A stretch of DNA of 64,000 bases from positions 1 through 64,000 of the IMG/VR virus record IMGVR_UViG_3300021197_001653. One strand, given 5' to 3'. Shown here piece after piece: positions 14 to 6,390 of this stretch (the first letter of the stretch is position 1; every line of letters begins with the position of its first letter). The translations under genes and the position numbers were made by a program. The DNA is from a virus. The notes under the pieces are model-generated. The model made no database searches and was not told where the DNA came from. It saw only the letters and a program-made list of their open reading frames with translations.

Positions 14-220
14 TTAATTTAAATTTATACTTCTGCTTAAAATAATTATAATAATCCATATATTAAATATAGGGATTATACTAAATATAATAGCAAATAT
101 AAATGTTTTTTTATCATATCCATATTGGAACTTTTTTATTGTACACATTAATAATATTATGTGAAATAATAATAATGATATTATATATAATATTTTTAAA
201 TTTATAAGTAATTCATCCAT
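14..220 (-). CDS. small membrane protein (early region)
   Basis: 68 aa, two hydrophobic segments, abuts the next ORF. Confidence 0.65.
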   Translation of the reverse strand: MDELLINLKILYIISLLLFHIILLMCTIKKFQYGYDKKTFIFAIIFSIIPIFNIWIIIIILSRSINLN

Positions 221-456
221 TATAAAAAATGTTTTATTTTAATATAATTTCTGTACCATATATATGATATACAAATCCATACTATAATGCTATAATAAGG
301 TTTATTACATAATATACACAATATAAGAGTAAATACACTTGTTATAAATGTATATTTAACTAATATATATTCATAATCTGATTTTATTTTCACACTAATT
401 AATACTGATATTGCAAAAATTGATGTAATTATAATTGATATTAATACTATATCCAT
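220..456 (-). CDS. small membrane protein
   Basis: 78 aa, about 3 hydrophobic segments; AACATT-ATG start context. Confidence 0.7.
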   Translation of the reverse strand: MDIVLISIIITSIFAISVLISVKIKSDYEYILVKYTFITSVFTLILCILCNKPYYSIIVWICISYIWYRNYIKIKHFL

Positions 457-475
457 AATGTTTTTATTTTTTAAT

Positions 476-670
476 TTATTCTAAATATTCATGTAATAAA
501 GCTATTATTAAAAACATTGCAATAATAAATACTATACCTATAACAAATAATCCTACTGCACCATCACTTGACAATGATGACCACATATCTAAAATACGTG
601 AAATGTACATTGATAACATTATTACATATAATAATGCAAATGATATTATATATTTTGATTTTGTGTTCAT
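476..670 (-). CDS. small membrane protein
   Basis: 64 aa, two TM-like segments; 4-nt overlap with upstream ORF. Confidence 0.7.
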   Translation of the reverse strand: MNTKSKYIISFALLYVIMLSMYISRILDMWSSLSSDGAVGLFVIGIVFIIAMFLIIALLHEYLE

Positions 671-921
671 AATATTCTTTTTATTTCGTTATTAATATTT
701 GTTTTATATTTTGCATGTAATATTCTTTTCTTAACTCTACATAATAATACTTCAAAACTTCTTTTTGTATAATAATTAAATTTAGGATAAAGCATTTTAA
801 TTATTAAATTTTTATCCCATACATCGTTGATATTCATTGATAATAATATATCTATTAAACTATCTGTAATTATAGGAGCTGTTAATTGTCTAGGTCTTGA
901 TACACTTTTTATATGTTTCAT
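667..921 (-). CDS. hypothetical basic protein
   Basis: 84 aa, coupled to neighbours. Confidence 0.65.
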   Translation of the reverse strand: MKHIKSVSRPRQLTAPIITDSLIDILLSMNINDVWDKNLIIKMLYPKFNYYTKRSFEVLLCRVKKRILHAKYKTNINNEIKRIL

Positions 922-1637
922 TATAATTTTTCTTTAACCCATTGTTCACTTAATTGTGTCCCATGAAATGTCCATGATTTCTTACAATGAGATGTATTAT
1001 ACATCGCTTGTGCACCGTCTAAGAAAGCTAATTTACATTTTACTTCCATTTCCTTTCTATCCCAACTATCCTTAATTGGATGAATAGTTATTGTGTTATG
1101 TGAATCTATTTTAAGTTTATAATCATGTAATTTTAAAGGATTATTAAATGGATTATTATAGTCCTTATTAACAGGTTTATACTCAACCATAACCTTATCA
1201 ATACCACCTTCTTTACAATATTTTTCAATAAATGCTTGTGATGGTTGAGGTAAACTATCTTTATAAAACATAGCTTTATATGTTGCAGTAGCTATTTTTT
1301 CTATTTTCAAAGATTTATCAGTAGTTGCTATGATTTTTCTACATTTATATTGTACAATTGAATTAAAATCTTTAAAATTAGACCAAACACTATTTCTATT
1401 AGTGTTACTAGTGGCTTGATATATCTTATTTAAATATATAAACCAATCACCTTCTTTAATTTCTTCATCTGTTGTGAAGTATAGGTGTTGATAAGACATA
1501 TATTTACTTGTATCAACAGCATGATTATAGAAATGTTTATTAGATTTATGTATTAATAAATCTAAACTATTATTATAAATAATATCTGTCTTTTCTTCTG
1601 TTGGTAACATTATTACCTTTGCTCTTTTAAGTTCCAT
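921..1637 (-). CDS. conserved phage hypothetical protein
   Basis: 238 aa; motifs QHLYFTTDEEIKEGDW, CRKIIATTDKSL and LPQPSQAFIEKY, recalled from Bacteroidota phage hypotheticals. Confidence 0.85.
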   Translation of the reverse strand: MELKRAKVIMLPTEEKTDIIYNNSLDLLIHKSNKHFYNHAVDTSKYMSYQHLYFTTDEEIKEGDWFIYLNKIYQATSNTNRNSVWSNFKDFNSIVQYKCRKIIATTDKSLKIEKIATATYKAMFYKDSLPQPSQAFIEKYCKEGGIDKVMVEYKPVNKDYNNPFNNPLKLHDYKLKIDSHNTITIHPIKDSWDRKEMEVKCKLAFLDGAQAMYNTSHCKKSWTFHGTQLSEQWVKEKL

Positions 1638-1658
1638 TTGTTTACTTTTAAGATTATT

Positions 1659-1936
1659 ACTATAAGCTGAGTGTTGACTTATTATATTATCATTTTATAT
1701 TGTTTCCAATATTATCACACACAATGTATTACTACATGTAGATAACATACTCACGATTTAAAGTCATCGCGACTTATTACTATAAAGTATATAAGTTCAT
1801 TTTCATACCAACTTCCTTACGGGATTCAAAGACTGTCATCTTTTAGATAAATATTATTCAATTCCTTCATATCAAGTCTTGCGAACTATTAATGTCATCA
1901 TATTGCAGATGAATAAGAGTATTGTAACTCTATAGT
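1659..1936 (-). ncRNA. putative ~280-nt structured ncRNA, family unknown
   Basis: No ORF of 60 aa or more; minus-strand hairpins AUAUUG-GAAA-CAAUAU, AUGUA-GUAA-UACAU, CC-GUAA-GG, GUUC-GCAA-GAC; terminal stem ACUAUAGAG/CUUAUAGU. Confidence 0.55.
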
Positions 1937-1980
1937 CTAGAAGTGTTTTGCTTTTTTTTTATGCTTAAAAATAAAAATAA

Positions 1981-2507
1981 ATGATTGGATTAGATAGAAG
2001 TCTCTTCTAGTTGTATATCGTACTGTCTTTTGAACAGCCAAAGATACCAACTCCTATCTATTTTCAGGTGTCACCCTTACTAACTTAATTACTATTTCAT
2101 CCCCATATTTCTATGATGATTACTATTGCAATTATAATAACAACTTCGCTTCTGACTGGCAGCTACTATCATTATTTATTAAACTATTTATTGGTAATTT
2201 CTTACCTCAATATCCCTTTCCATTAAGATATATATAACTCTCCTACTCTGATGAGCCATTCCAAATTATACATTGTTTAATACCTTTCAGTGACATGCAT
2301 ATATAAATGCATGGCAATAAGACTACTCATTTAATAATAGTTTCTTATCACTTTATTCCATTACTGGGTTATCCTACGGCTACGAAGGCTAGCCATTTAC
2401 TATTTACTGTTTGTTATTCCTTATACATCAGATTACATGTATCTCTAGCTTCTTTTTGTTTCAGGATTTCCGCTTTCCCCCCTAATACAACGCTCACTGT
2501 TGTATTA
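1981..2507 (-). ncRNA. large ornate ncRNA, ROOL-like
   Basis: ~520 nt, purine-rich on the minus strand with many stems and GNRA loops; ordered blocks GAAAUCCUGAAACAA, GUAAAU-stem-GUAGGAUAACC..GAAUAAAGUG, CUUAUUGCC..CACUGAA and UCAAAAG resemble ROOL as I recall it. Confidence 0.65.
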
Positions 2508-2711
2508 TTTTATTTTAAAAATTATTATTAATATACAACAAATTAAACCTATTATGTATATTATTGCAGATGCATTAAATAATTTATTTATTTTAGAATA
2601 TAATTTATATCCATTTTCACTCCATCCATGATCACTATATTCATAGTGACACCAATTTATTATACTTATAAGTACAATTATTAATGTTGATATTATTAGA
2701 TATTCTTTCAT
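2505..2711 (-). CDS. small membrane protein
   Basis: 68 aa, two TM-like segments. Confidence 0.65.
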   Translation of the reverse strand: MKEYLIISTLIIVLISIINWCHYEYSDHGWSENGYKLYSKINKLFNASAIIYIIGLICCILIIIFKIK

Positions 2712-2720
2712 TATTTTTAA

Positions 2721-2849
2721 CTATTGTATCATGGCACATATAAATGCTATGATGATTAATAAAAATCCAATTATGTCAGTTGTTGGATCATCTGTGTTCT
2801 CACCAAATAATAATAGTAAGATACCTATTATAAACATAAATGTTAACAT
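2721..2849 (-). CDS. 42-aa membrane peptide (below ORF-track cutoff)
   Basis: Manual translation MLTFMFIIGILLLLFGENTDDPTTDIIGFLLIIIAFICAMIQ; ATATT-ATG start context. Confidence 0.55.
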   Translation of the reverse strand: MLTFMFIIGILLLLFGENTDDPTTDIIGFLLIIIAFICAMIQ

Positions 2850-2862
2850 AATATTAGTAATT

Positions 2863-3081
2863 TTATTTTATTAAATATGTTTTAAAGCCATTATTAATTA
2901 TGTAATGATTATAAAGTGCATTAACATAATTAGCATATTTAGCTCGTCCTTCATGAACTCTTAATCTCTCCAGCTCATGTTGTTGAACTAATACTAACCT
3001 ATAAGGTTGAAATAATAGTTCTTTGATTTTATCTGCTACAGATAGGTGATTTTTATCTGATATCCAATTATTTTGTGACAC
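2863..3081 (-). CDS. hypothetical protein
   Basis: 72 aa, GTG start, co-oriented with the cluster. Confidence 0.65.
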   Translation of the reverse strand: MSQNNWISDKNHLSVADKIKELLFQPYRLVLVQQHELERLRVHEGRAKYANYVNALYNHYIINNGFKTYLIK

Positions 3082-3086
3082 TGTTT

Positions 3087-3212
3087 TTAAGATTTAGTTC
3101 GTTTAACTATTTTAATTATCCTAGATGTATTACAATTACATTTACCACATTTACATCGTCTAGTTCTAGCATGTAATGATACGGCTCGTCTTGTTCTTTC
3201 CTTTATTGGCAT
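3087..3212 (-). CDS. 41-aa basic Cys-rich peptide
   Basis: Manual translation MPIKERTRRAVSLHARTRRCKCGKCNCNTSRIIKIVKRTKS. Confidence 0.5.
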   Translation of the reverse strand: MPIKERTRRAVSLHARTRRCKCGKCNCNTSRIIKIVKRTKS

Positions 3213-3382
3213 GATATTACTATGTTAGTGAATAATAATATATCTATTGTGTATATTATTGATGATATAAATGCATATACTCCAAATGTTGTTGGATACT
3301 CTTCAGTATTTAATATTCTATCCACATATATTAATGTGAATAAGATAGTTATAAATACCATTATTGTTTTAAATATTATCAT
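3203..3382 (-). CDS. 59-aa membrane protein
   Basis: Manual translation MIIFKTIMVFITILFTLIYVDRIL...; AACATT-ATG start context. Confidence 0.6.
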   Translation of the reverse strand: MIIFKTIMVFITILFTLIYVDRILNTEEYPTTFGVYAFISSIIYTIDILLFTNIVISCQ

Positions 3383-3410
3383 AATGTTGTTTTTTAAATT
3401 AATTAAAAAT

Positions 3411-3507
3411 AACTCTCACAAGGTTCCACCTTGCTATTAACTACAGATTATAAATGTGTATTTGCAAATTATGCATTTAATAAATATCCTTACGTTGGAT
3501 GAGAGTT
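3411..3507 (-). ncRNA. intergenic multibranch, tRNA-like structured element
   Basis: 8-bp closing stem AACUCUCA/UGAGAGUU, arms UCC/GGA and UUAUUAA/UUAAUAG, and CAAGG-UGGAA-CCUUG directly 5' of the closing strand. Confidence 0.5.
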
Positions 3508-3520
3508 TTTAGTTGCATAA

Positions 3521-3721
3521 TTATGTAAATTTAAATATTGGTATATTAATATCAACATGATATGTAATAATACAATATATTATTGTTAAAGTAAGATATA
3601 TTATTGTTAAAGCACAACCACCTAATCCATTACCTTCTTGTTCCATATAACTTATATATCTTAAGAATAAAATTGATACTATTATCCATATTACCCAATC
3701 TAAGATGTGTATTGTTATCAT
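3521..3721 (-). CDS. small membrane protein
   Basis: Track ORF 3521..3742; the likely start is 3721, which follows the AATAACATT motif. Confidence 0.65.
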   Translation of the reverse strand: MITIHILDWVIWIIVSILFLRYISYMEQEGNGLGGCALTIIYLTLTIIYCIITYHVDINIPIFKFT

Positions 3722-3728
3722 AATGTTA

Positions 3729-3926
3729 TTATTTATATTCACCTTTCCATACTATAATACCTCTAAGTATTCTTACTATTAAAGCTATTGGAGCAAATAC
3801 TATATTAGCTAAAACAAAAAATGTTTGTGTTTCATAATCATCATCATAGAAATCATGTTGAGATGCATTAAATACACCATAAAATATCCAAAATGTTGTT
3901 ATTAATATTATTTCTAATGTTGTCAT
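3729..3926 (-). CDS. small membrane protein
   Basis: 65 aa, two TM-like segments with an acidic loop. Confidence 0.7.
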   Translation of the reverse strand: MTTLEIILITTFWIFYGVFNASQHDFYDDDYETQTFFVLANIVFAPIALIVRILRGIIVWKGEYK

Positions 3927-3930
3927 AATG

Positions 3931-4077
3931 TTATTGTTTTCTTAATCTTCTTGATTTTCTTACTAATTTAGCTACTTTATCAAAACCTATATCTCTGACT
4001 TTTTTACTAAATAAAGGTGTATCAGTATACCAAAATGGTACTGTCCAACCTCTAACTTTCTTTTGCCACCATTTCAT
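3931..4077 (-). CDS. 48-aa basic, Trp-rich peptide
   Basis: Manual translation MKWWQKKVRGWTVPFWYTDTPLFSKKVRDIGFDKVAKLVRKSRRLRKQ; preceded by AAAACAATAACATT. Confidence 0.6.
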   Translation of the reverse strand: MKWWQKKVRGWTVPFWYTDTPLFSKKVRDIGFDKVAKLVRKSRRLRKQ

Positions 4078-4117
4078 AATGTTATTGTTTTATATTTAAT
4101 TATGTTAATGTATAAAA

Positions 4118-4201
4118 TATAGATATTAAATCCCCTTTACTTGTCATTGACTCACACCTAATTTAAAGAGATAAAATAGTGCTTTAGTATTAATATCTAT
4201 A
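4118..4201 (-). ncRNA. structured intergenic element, possible pseudoknot
   Basis: Perfect 12-bp inverted repeat 4118-4129/4190-4201 enclosing further complementary blocks (UCUCUUUA/UAAAGGGGA). Confidence 0.4.
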
Positions 4202-4401
4202 CTAAATATAACTAAGGTGTAATCTCTATAGATTAAGTTTAACTAACTATACCTTGTTATGTGATAATGATTATTTTTAGCTATAGTATTAATGAAGAGA
4301 ATGATATTTTGATTACTTACCCGATTGGATAAATAGGTGAGATAGGATAGTACCACCCTTACATACCCTATCATATCAAACCCTTCACAATACCTTGTGT
4401 G

Positions 4402-4578
4402 TTAGTTCTTGCTAAATTTAACAAGTGGTTTATTCTTACCTTCAGTAATGGAAGTTGTAGCCATATTAAGCATACCTAAGACTTCCATTTGGTTCTCTGT
4501 ACCTCTTGAACACATTGATAATTCTAATGGTCCTGAATCAGGTCCTGTTACTGTAATAGTTAATGTTCTTTTTTTCAT
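4402..4578 (-). CDS. 58-aa hypothetical protein
   Basis: Manual translation MKKRTLTITVTGPDSGPLELSMCSRGTENQMEVLGMLNMATTSITEGKNKPLVKFSKN; co-oriented with the early cluster. Confidence 0.6.
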   Translation of the reverse strand: MKKRTLTITVTGPDSGPLELSMCSRGTENQMEVLGMLNMATTSITEGKNKPLVKFSKN

Positions 4579-4689
4579 GATAGTAATTGTTTGTTTATTC
4601 TTTTAATAATAAGTATAGTATAATGATAATAAGGAATATGTCCATAATTATAAGTTTAAGTTAGTTTATGTTCCGCCAAGGTTTTATAA

Positions 4690-4726
4690 TAAAAAAGAAA
4701 TAGAGAAGTGACTTAACACCTCTCTA
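4690..4726 (-). terminator. intrinsic terminator after first early gene
   Basis: Minus strand TAGAGAGGTG-TTAAGT-CACTTCTCTA followed by TTTCTTTTTT. Confidence 0.75.
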
Positions 4727-4752
4727 CTCTTTATAGTTCTCTAACCAACTAT

Positions 4753-5196
4753 TTAATTAGTTAATGGTTCTCCAGTCTTACTAGCAGCTACAGCAGGAAC
4801 AATCTCATCAGCAAATGCTCCAAACATAGCATCTAAACCTTCATTGTCTGTTGGTACACCACTTAAGTGAGACATTCTACCCAAGAATACATGCTTACCC
4901 TCTTCCTTAGTAGAAGGCACTTTGTTGATAGTAGTCAAATACTCACTACCAACTGCAAATGTACCATTAGCCTCAGTCATACGAGTGATAGTCTTCTCAG
5001 CTATCTGTACAGTCAACGCTATCTTGTTATCACCAACTAATACATTGGCAAGCTTGTAGCGCTTAGTTTCTTTTTCAGCATTAACATATGTCAACCAGCC
5101 TTCATCTTTCAATGAGATTGCACTGTTTAACATTGTTGTTCCAATTAAGTCAATGCTGTTGCTTAATGGGTTGAACTTTTGAATAAATCCTTTCAT
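4753..5196 (-). CDS. first early gene; possible OB-fold nucleic-acid-binding protein
   Basis: 147 aa, beta-rich with an acidic/flexible tail; visibly higher GC than neighbours; function inferred only. Confidence 0.6.
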   Translation of the reverse strand: MKGFIQKFNPLSNSIDLIGTTMLNSAISLKDEGWLTYVNAEKETKRYKLANVLVGDNKIALTVQIAEKTITRMTEANGTFAVGSEYLTTINKVPSTKEEGKHVFLGRMSHLSGVPTDNEGLDAMFGAFADEIVPAVAASKTGEPLTN

Positions 5197-5335
5197 CTTA
5201 TACGTGTTTAATGATTATACATTCGTTATTAATATTACCCCTAGAGGGTATCGCAAAAGTAAAAAAGAGTGGGGGTTGATGTTTAAGTTGATTCACGTAT
5301 CCATCAAAGTTTTTTAAAAATAATTCCTAAAAAAT

Positions 5336-5366
5336 TTTTTTATTCCAATTATTTTTTGTATCTTTG
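5336..5366 (+). promoter_or_regulatory. Bacteroidota sigma-A-type promoter
   Basis: -7 element TATCTTTG at 5359-5366; weak -33 element. Confidence 0.6.
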
Positions 5367-5391
5367 TATAATAAATTAAAAATATAATATT

Positions 5392-5631
5392 ATGATAATA
5401 GAATTTAAAGAGGAGAATTGGGAGGAAATAGAGGCATTAAAGATTGCTAGACTTAATCAAGTAAAGGAATACATGAAAGAAGAAGGTTTAGACATTAATA
5501 CTTATAATATGGGTCTTATTAAGTCACCAGCTACTGAACTAATAGAGATAGACCTATCTAAAGTAAACCCTAAGCAATTTAGACATATAAAAAGAATACT
5601 TTCAGGTAAATATGATAAATTTGAAAAATAA
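5392..5631 (+). CDS. hypothetical protein
   Basis: 79 aa, downstream of promoter. Confidence 0.7.
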   Translation: MIIEFKEENWEEIEALKIARLNQVKEYMKEEGLDINTYNMGLIKSPATELIEIDLSKVNPKQFRHIKRILSGKYDKFEK

Positions 5632-5643
5632 ATCACTTTTTCC

Positions 5644-5674
5644 TTGTATATGTCAAATATTTTTCGTACCTTTG
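5644..5674 (+). promoter_or_regulatory. Bacteroidota sigma-A-type promoter
   Basis: TTG(5644)-N20-TACCTTTG(5667-5674). Confidence 0.8.
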
Positions 5675-5705
5675 CATAAGTATTAATAAAAAGATATAAA
5701 TAAAG

Positions 5706-5939
5706 ATGTATAAAATATTTGAAGATATACAAGTACAACTCTTGTATTATAAGTATCACTATTATGAAAAGAGTGAATCAGTAGTAACAGATCATCAGTA
5801 TGATGTATTAGAAAAGATAAGTAAAGATCTAGCTAAAGCATTAAATATAAAAGATACCTGCTATAGTTGTATTCACAACATGGTAGGATTTAGTAAGAAT
5901 AGCCCTTATTGGGACAAAGTAAAAGAAAGATTAATATAA
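5706..5939 (+). CDS. stand-alone NAD-dependent DNA ligase Ia-like domain protein
   Basis: YHYYEKSESVVTDHQYDVLEK matches the LigA Ia pattern YY-x5-6-(I/V)(S/T)DxxYDxL; later VG motif. Confidence 0.65.
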   Translation: MYKIFEDIQVQLLYYKYHYYEKSESVVTDHQYDVLEKISKDLAKALNIKDTCYSCIHNMVGFSKNSPYWDKVKERLI

Positions 5940-5940
5940 T

Positions 5941-6390
5941 ATGAAAAACATAAAACTAATATTACTAGGATTATTAATGTCAGTAAGTTCATACTCCCAA
6001 AGTAAAGTAGGTATAAGTAAAGAAATAGATAAATATGCCTTGGAATTTGTAAAAGAATCTGAAAAAAGAGGCGTAGCTATTAAAAGATTAATAATTGATA
6101 GAGTAGATTATATAGTAATATCTAATAAATTACCAAATAGTTTATATGGTGTTACTTTTTTTGATAAACGATCAATTTTTATAAATGAATCTATATTAAA
6201 AGATACTATAAAGACTAAATTCACAGTATTTCATGAATTAGGTCATGCTTTAACAAATAAACTACATGTATGTCAATTGTGTGATCACATTATGTCTGAA
6301 AAAGTTAAAGATTTTACACCATACTCTAATAAAAAACATTGGGATAATACATTAGATGTATTTTTTAAATGGTTATATATTAATCTATAA
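5941..6390 (+). CDS. secreted zinc metallopeptidase (metzincin-like)
   Basis: Signal peptide MKNIKLILLGLLMSVSSYSQ; HELGHALTNKLH motif and downstream IM turn. Confidence 0.75.
   Translation: MKNIKLILLGLLMSVSSYSQSKVGISKEIDKYALEFVKESEKRGVAIKRLIIDRVDYIVISNKLPNSLYGVTFFDKRSIFINESILKDTIKTKFTVFHELGHALTNKLHVCQLCDHIMSEKVKDFTPYSNKKHWDNTLDVFFKWLYINL

Follow-up and report, generated by a model that had tools for sequence, protein, structure and literature searches.

A stretch of phage DNA very probably encodes, on its minus strand, one GOLLD-family RNA of ~735 nt that belongs to a divergent, A/U-rich branch below the Rfam curated cut-off. The RNA occupies positions 2398 to 1663 of the window, by which we mean the whole stretch analysed here, which corresponds to the initial 64 kb of an IMG/VR virus record of 104,434 bp, complete according to CheckV. 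The G+C content is 22–34%. As judged from its predicted proteins, the source of this DNA is a crAss-like phage: matches in phage PHROG families were obtained for its large terminase (TerL), its portal, and its major capsid protein (MCP). The closest cultured relative, Cellulophaga phage phi14:2 (Crassvirales, Steigviridae), has an MCP with 62% identity to that of the window, and the MCPs of Bacteroides crAss-like isolates show 48–49% identity to it. The RNA locus lies inside a minus-strand block of small ORFs (14–5759), from which the plus-strand structural genes diverge.

Family assignment and extent of the RNA

A preliminary description of this DNA had placed a ROOL-like RNA at 1981–2507. 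We searched positions 1600–2800 against all 4227 Rfam families using a permissive cmscan (E ≤ 10). The results showed a GOLLD (RF02032) match at 1664–2058 on the minus strand, which covers model positions 1–416 of 416 with a score of 64.1 bits and an E-value of 5e-16 (1e-17 per genome). This match took a large composition correction (bias 40), and its score does not reach the RF02032 gathering score of 150 bits, a threshold that is operational rather than biological; no Rfam family reached its gathering score anywhere in the window. ROOL gave no match in the searched interval even at E ≤ 10, and the ROOL identity was replaced by GOLLD on these grounds. A ROOL RNA or ROOL-like relative, suggested by a similar size, GNRA-rich stems, and carriage by a phage, is now extremely improbable, because cmscan lists GOLLD and not ROOL and the 5' region is homologous to stretches that lie upstream of GOLLD 3' domains. 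Other parts of the preliminary description held: the region contains no credible ORF (only frames of 37–74 aa); the reading of the locus as a large ornate non-coding RNA, encoded on the minus strand by a crAss-like phage, was correct; and GOLLD, like ROOL, is known to build RNA-only cages.

In GOLLD RNAs, conservation is higher in the 3' region than in the 5' region, and the linker is variable (PMC12286853); the RF02032 model covers the conserved 3' region only. Together these suggested that 1981–2507 contains the 5' domain and that its U-rich tract is the linker. Searches of viral contigs with nhmmer agree with this layout. In at least 14 loci (best E-value 9e-18), the sequence immediately preceding the GOLLD 3' domain matched the region first described; the 3' half matched at least 22 loci (best E-value 6e-32 among the matches listed), and the two matches were contiguous in every homolog, giving RNAs of 720–800 nt.

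The fold of both halves is under clear covariation. For the 5' domain, an alignment of 14 sequences yielded 68 RNAalifold pairs, with 95.7% of cells paired versus 33–50% when the partners were slid by 1–3 columns; 51 of the 68 pairs were compensatory versus 11–15 in the slid controls, and none of 500 shuffles was as high. The same helices were recovered with 29 sequences (65 pairs, 54 compensatory), so that a 5' domain of 335 nt with 65–68 covarying pairs lies directly upstream of the 3' domain, as in the GOLLD-type layout. For the 3' domain together with its pseudoknot, the 29 sequences gave 87 pairs and 94.5% paired cells versus 38–45% after sliding, 78 of the 87 pairs being compensatory (0/500 shuffles as high), and the helices found de novo by RNAalifold coincide one-for-one with the Rfam consensus structure. 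Collecting homologs and looking for covariation, as the preliminary description had proposed, hence supported a structured RNA, with 94–96% of cells paired versus 33–50% in the slid controls. Taken alone, folding of the single sequence is weak evidence (minus strand, z = -1.9; plus strand, z = -0.7). It is covariation and the covariance-model match, not the stems themselves, that argue for a structured RNA.

As for these stems, all those listed earlier are present on the minus strand, and most are conserved with compensatory changes. The conserved helices include GGCUA/UAGCC at 2378–2394, GGUA-GAAA-UACC at 2193–2206, CAUA-GAAA-UAUG inside 2099–2121, and the nested hairpin at 1993–2058. The CAUGCAU/AUGCAUG stem at 2294–2313 is real but sits in a hairpin region of variable length, where the homologs show in their alignments two shorter GNRA-type hairpins, and the hairpin at 2483–2507 is conserved in no homolog. 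The GAAA-capped hairpin H7, whose context is invariant (Table 1), may be the counterpart of L11a, a conserved GAAA loop of the solved GOLLD (PMC12286853).

The limits of the RNA differ from those first proposed. Homology begins near 2398, only a few bases ahead of the hairpin at 2394–2378, and 2400–2507 is conserved in no homolog; the RNA thus runs from 2398 to 1663 instead of covering 1981–2507. Its 5' end is uncertain and could reach ~2480. The stretch 2399–2507 is probably a leader, a promoter, or the end of the upstream gene, outside the conserved RNA. Positions 2400–2520 bear a weak, equivocal resemblance to the upstream element of one group of relatives, and a scan for promoter and terminator consensus sequences found no convincing promoter and nothing above shuffle level that fits the RNA ends. 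The 3' end is the terminal hairpin; U-runs follow it in several relatives and are absent in the window, where the start codon of the next ORF stands 27 nt past the RNA end.

Group-specific elements were seen upstream of the RNA in some relatives. One group of loci (L321, L342, L238, L196, L256, L328, L348, L363, L354, L308, L338, and L327) has a conserved element of ~75 nt, AUAAGUACACAAUGUUGUUACCCUCAGAGUU...GGUGUGUACGUUAAG, before the first GOLLD hairpin. A second group (L322, L349, L315, L311, and L309) has a different element, likewise of ~75 nt, containing a covarying hairpin, CUAAGG-UGAGAAU-CCUUGG. The 5' ends of the RNAs of these groups may accordingly lie further upstream.

The A/U-rich tract at 1945–1992 had been taken for a terminator tail marking the end of the RNA, followed by a second tandem RNA of ~280 nt at 1659–1936. 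The tract does resemble a spacer or terminator tail, and the GOLLD 5' and 3' domains are separate in the solved structure (PMC12286853). However, a pseudoknot helix (2010-2003/1944-1937), in which 8 of 8 pairs are compensatory and 91% of cells paired, crosses the outer stem of the first 3' hairpin, encloses the tract, and ties the two halves together, while a single Rfam model covers 2058–1664 and the halves are contiguous in every homolog. Two tandem RNAs separated by an A/T spacer are therefore most improbable; the tract is an internal linker, the RNA continues to ~1663, and the presumed second RNA is the rest of the same molecule. In the first 3' hairpin, the outer stem is 95% paired (7 of 9 pairs compensatory) and the inner stem 99%. 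The linker varies among homologs in both length and sequence. In six loci (L322, L315, L325, L311, L359, and L302; alignment columns 100–135) it contains a conserved hairpin, GCCAUUAGAUUGGC and variants, suggesting that the linker is not always unstructured.

The copy in the window is intact. It forms 146 of the 152 consensus pairs (85/87 in the 3' domain and 61/65 in the 5' domain) and keeps 178 of the 190 columns whose conservation in the other sequences is 90% or more (97/103 and 81/87). These values argue against a decaying relic, or a long structured leader of the g004-like gene that follows, with no function of its own. Such an origin might be thought of because the closest relatives of the phage have no such RNA and the gap to the next gene is only 27 nt, but the homologs lie beside unrelated genes and compensatory change reflects selection on the fold itself, so that we consider it highly improbable.

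Table 1. Coordinates of the GOLLD-family RNA, its structural elements, and selected genes in the window
Feature	Position	Strand	Basis or remark
Whole GOLLD-family RNA (very probable), ~735 nt	1663..2398	-	contiguous nhmmer matches to both halves; Rfam GOLLD 1664-2058
Upstream stretch with 2483-2507 hairpin	2399..2507	-	hairpin overlaps stop of ORF 2505-2711; no homology in any relative
5' domain, 11 conserved helices	2066..2398	-	covariation, RNAalifold
H1	2394-2390/2382-2378	-	
H2	2367-2365/2360-2358	-	
H3	2282-2274/2185-2177	-	
H4	2271-2263/2240-2232	-	
H5	2256-2253/2248-2245	-	
H6	2231-2224/2218-2210	-	
H7	2206-2203/2196-2193	-	
H8	2176-2169/2143-2136	-	
H9	2163-2161/2150-2148	-	
H10	2121-2112/2107-2099	-	
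H11	2077-2075/2068-2066	-	
Motif GAUAANCCAGYRAUGGNAUAA, holds H2	2353..2373	-	exact-pattern IMG/VR scan
Two length-variable hairpins, 2351-2314 and 2313-2294	2294..2351	-	RNAfold of window segment
GAAA-capped hairpin (H7), invariant context UUGAG-stem-GAAA-stem-CAAUA	2193..2206	-	pair types GC/CG/UA/AU, 29 sequences
First 3'-domain hairpin, UCAAAAG loop	1993..2058	-	Rfam model positions 1-69; inner stem 2037-2033/2027-2023, outer 2058-2050/2001-1993
Pseudoknot helix 2010-2003/1944-1937	1937..2010	-	8/8 pairs compensatory
A/U-rich variable linker, ~48 nt	1945..1992	-	aligns to unpaired variable stretch of RF02032
3'-domain core	1663..1936	-	RF02032 positions 119-416
Closing helix of 3' core	1936-1928/1787-1779	-	
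3'-core hairpins	1912-1895; 1894-1868 (UCGCAAG loop)	-	
Three-way junction	1867-1793	-	
L21a-equivalent hairpin, loop UGACAG	1828..1843	-	dinucleotide A1836 C1835; RF02032 positions 233-245, consensus loop cGCAAg
L21b-equivalent hairpin, loop CGUAA	1814..1824	-	dinucleotide G1820 U1819
3'-core domain	1747-1685	-	
Terminal hairpin	1681-1663	-	
238-aa gene, phi14:2 g004 homolog	921..1637	-	42% identity, E 5e-36; phrog_15656
GroEL-like chaperonin gene, 475 aa	12155-13582	+	phrog_5725, E 3e-101; directly before large terminase gene

A GOLLD branch in uncultured phages

Having located the RNA in one phage, we describe here its distribution. A blastn search of window positions 1600–2600 against GenBank phages returned no match. 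When IMG/VR was scanned for three signature words of GOLLD, at least 118 loci were found; the scan used a loosened pattern, since an earlier three-part DNA pattern was too strict and missed a canonical GOLLD. The 21-nt motif of the 5' domain occurred in 81 stretches in a complete IMG/VR scan, and 65 of the 68 newly fetched loci matched the profile of the subgroup. With both scans combined, at least 55 loci match the 5' half of the window RNA and at least 77 its 3' half. Overall, homologs with 51–63% identity are carried by at least ~80 IMG/VR contigs, and 28 full-length relatives, likewise 51–63% identical to the window RNA, were left after removal of sequences more than 93% identical. Among the 22 nearest contigs in the matches listed, 19 gave full-length RF02032 matches of 56–123 bits, 3 gave none at E ≤ 0.01, and not one reached the cut-off of 150. 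Because the scored relatives all fall below the cut-off, this branch is invisible to routine annotation; a large branch of the GOLLD family thus escapes Rfam. Among the matches listed in literature searches on GOLLD and phage and on crAss-like phages, we found no mention of GOLLD in crAss-like phages.

The same motif was also scanned for in 185,579 bacterial and archaeal genomes, giving 14 matches versus ~17 expected by chance (an estimate). These included no canonical GOLLD; one 4.6-kb MAG contig holds a real member of the subgroup.

The branch is carried mainly by uncultured crAss-like phages, many of them distant from the window phage. Homologs of the window MCP are encoded by 27 of 70 contigs with the subgroup RNA, at identities of 46%, 41%, 39%, 30%, 30%, and 29%, plus ~20 contigs at 23–28%. 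All five complete genomes (105–123 kb) of the weak-identity group encode a full-length portal homolog (E-values 4e-72 to 2e-22), and in the three genomes checked (G094, G101, and G120) it is located a few kb before the MCP gene, as in the window. The RNA lies ~12 kb from the MCP gene, on the opposite strand, in two closer carriers and 17 kb from it in the window. Partial matches also occur in some jumbo-sized contigs that lack an MCP gene of this kind, indicating that the branch extends beyond crAss-like phages.

The close relatives of the window phage present a different picture. No GOLLD was found in any of 44 IMG/VR contigs whose MCP is 77–86% identical to that of the window, seven of which are at least 90% complete, and phi14:2 gave no GOLLD match. 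A BLAST search of these MCP relatives with positions 900–3400 matched the downstream gene only, and in one of them a gap of 234 nt lies upstream of the syntenic downstream gene. The lack of the RNA in the closest relatives suggests that it is dispensable, as an accessory gene would be. Its presence in the window phage and absence in close relatives offer a natural fitness comparison.

Neighbouring tRNAs are frequent in the GOLLD family, though not obligatory. In agreement with the preliminary description, no tRNA adjoins the window RNA: ARAGORN found none in the 64-kb window, and no tRNA lies within 1.5 kb at 44 of 52 subgroup loci. The so-called tRNA-shaped element of the preliminary description at 3411–3507 (minus strand) was not called as a tRNA by ARAGORN, and there was no Rfam match in 2700–6200 at E ≤ 0.1. 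The only tRNA of the phage, tRNA-Met(CAU), is located outside the window (genome positions 99,928–100,002, minus strand); it is on the GOLLD strand and would lie ~6.8 kb upstream of the RNA if the genome ends were joined. At individual loci of the subgroup, a tRNA-His follows the extracted RNA region after 5 nt in L349 (6565–6639) and after ~250 nt in L315 (1002–1076), and an array of at least 8 tRNAs stands just downstream of the RNA in L339 (3263–4582).

Paired variation of the L21a and L21b loops

Two symmetric kissing loops join the halves of the solved GOLLD cage, forming the homotypic bridges B8 and B9; L21a alternates between the palindromes GC and CG, and L21b is conserved (PMC12286853). 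The self-complementary L21a and L21b loops of GOLLD are not found in the window RNA. Its equivalent hairpins carry the dinucleotides AC (L21a) and GU (L21b), neither of which is palindromic, and which are complementary to each other.

To follow these loops through the subgroup, a small covariance model of the three-way junction was built without loop-loop pairs and used to align 67 members, resulting in 50 distinct rows. In this model-fitted alignment of 50 distinct sequences, the first loop-loop pair was GC in 35, AU in 10, and CG in 2, and the second was CG in 44 and GC in 2, with one unpaired cell; overall, 98.9% were paired. The dinucleotide states (L21a/L21b) were GC/GC in most members, AC/GU in 10 rows, CC/GG in 2 rows, and GG/CC in 2 rows, plus 4 further GG/CC rows in which the model assigned the UGGU loop to insert columns. 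By our reading of the alignments, the AC/GU rows belong to at least three separate sequence groups.

Canonical GOLLDs are not detected by the junction model, and their loops were read by regex and RNAfold extraction. In these (30 distinct sequences among the matches listed), the palindromic loops vary independently: ~10 combine a CG L21a with a GC L21b, and one combines GC with AU. Independent palindromes are what self-pairing predicts, in agreement with the homotypic bridges B8 and B9 (PMC12286853), while covarying complementary loops imply that the subgroup uses a heterotypic L21a–L21b contact.

Covariation does not distinguish pairing of L21a and L21b within a chain from pairing between chains. 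One possibility, which we hold tentatively and at less than even weight, is that the crAss-like GOLLD branch has rewired the joint of its half-shells, such that L21a of one chain would pair with L21b of another and the codes would switch together (GC/GC, AC/GU, GG/CC, and CC/GG). It is also conceivable, if rather unlikely, that this GOLLD relative forms no 14-mer cage, its L21a and L21b kissing within one chain or between two chains to give a monomeric or dimeric scaffold that serves another purpose. The non-palindromic dinucleotides cannot form the homotypic bridges of the solved structure by Watson-Crick pairing, the two hairpins are neighbours only 3–4 nt apart, and covariation is blind to which mode is used, all of which would fit such a scaffold. 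On the contrary, the rest of the 3' domain, including its other conserved loops, is kept, and intrachain kissing of two adjacent short hairpins appears sterically awkward; the GC/GC state of most members is compatible with either mode. If the rewired joint between chains is real, the shell would have a chain-to-chain connectivity, and perhaps a copy number, unlike those of the solved 14-mer, and mixed assembly between the RNAs of co-infecting phages would be code-specific. The paired switch of the two bridge loops may therefore serve as a natural test of the cage joint.

Genomic neighbourhood, proposed role, and known systems

The 238-aa gene downstream of the RNA is a homolog of phi14:2 g004 (Table 1). 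The flanking proteins have no Pfam match and were not found beside other GOLLD copies, whose neighbours are unrelated genes; because they are not conserved there, no protein partner is suggested. A search for relatives of the RNA by way of the 238-aa protein yielded homologs of only 24–41% identity, and 1 of the 50 contigs carries a GOLLD, which is canonical. This copy (L082, 1501–1904, minus strand, 299.8 bits) is on a 75-kb viral contig, ~11 kb from a distant homolog of the 238-aa protein.

In phi14:2, g004 belongs to an early block, the early genes are made by a virion-packaged RNA polymerase, and transcripts of the gene-free stretches next to g004 are present from the first time point onwards, persist, and exceed those of most genes (bioRxiv 10.1101/2020.03.07.982082). 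By analogy, a placement of the window RNA in an early operon, as proposed in the preliminary description, is plausible; the role in host takeover suggested there is speculative. We also observed a tmRNA in the phi14:2 region 2905–4601 (NC_021806.1), from which two abundant early long non-coding RNAs had been reported. By ARAGORN, it lies at 4031–4500 on the plus strand, with the tag GSSVQKLAMVA*, and RF00023 scores it at 46 bits versus a cut-off of 47 (E-value 2.9e-16). The tmRNA accounts for part of 2905–4601 and not for 2905–3590.

On these analogies, a course of events can be proposed whose steps differ in likelihood. The window RNA would probably be transcribed within the minus-strand small-gene block, the counterpart of the phi14:2 early block, and accumulate during infection. 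We lean slightly towards its self-assembly, free of protein, into a hollow multimeric shell that encloses the linker, like GOLLD env-38; this step is extrapolated from one solved and distant member of the family. An interchain L21a–L21b contact might then connect the half-shells, with the tentative weight given above. As to function, our best guess, a speculative and doubtful one, is that the shell would sequester or organise part of the translation machinery during infection.

The known system closest to the window RNA is GOLLD itself, of which the 833-nt marine member env-38 forms a 14-mer cage with D7 symmetry by cryo-EM (Kretsch et al., Nature 2025, PMC12286853). The window RNA shares with it the helices of the 3' domain and the signature loops UCAAAAG, AAAGCAAAA, and UCGCAAG together with the terminal GUCAACACUCAGC hairpin. 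The two also have in common that the structured 5' domain and the linker behind the first 3' hairpin are variable, that they measure 0.7–0.8 kb, and that phages carry them. It differs in its scores (64 bits for the window and 56–123 for the subgroup where matched, versus a cut-off of 150), in its carrier, which is a crAss-like phage of virulent type instead of a prophage, and in having no adjacent tRNA. A further difference concerns the bridge loops: L21a and L21b are mutually complementary in the window (AC/GU), whereas each canonical loop is self-complementary. The bridge-loop code, as read from the sequence, is of a different kind from that of the solved family member.

To our knowledge, GOLLD is one of very few natural RNAs that build a protein-free cage. 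ROOL, an 8-mer RNA-only cage with a disordered internal linker, resembles the window RNA as a large ornate RNA of phages or prophages and, if the predicted shell forms, as an RNA-only cage; in sequence and fold, the two are unrelated. The early non-coding RNAs of phi14:2 (g004–g006 region) are similar in that large non-coding RNA genes stand beside a g004-family gene in a block of small genes. However, they belong to another RNA family, are partly tmRNA, and lie downstream of g004, while the window RNA lies upstream of the g004 homolog. Being cultured and covered by transcriptomics, phi14:2 is a possible chassis for probing the role of this RNA.
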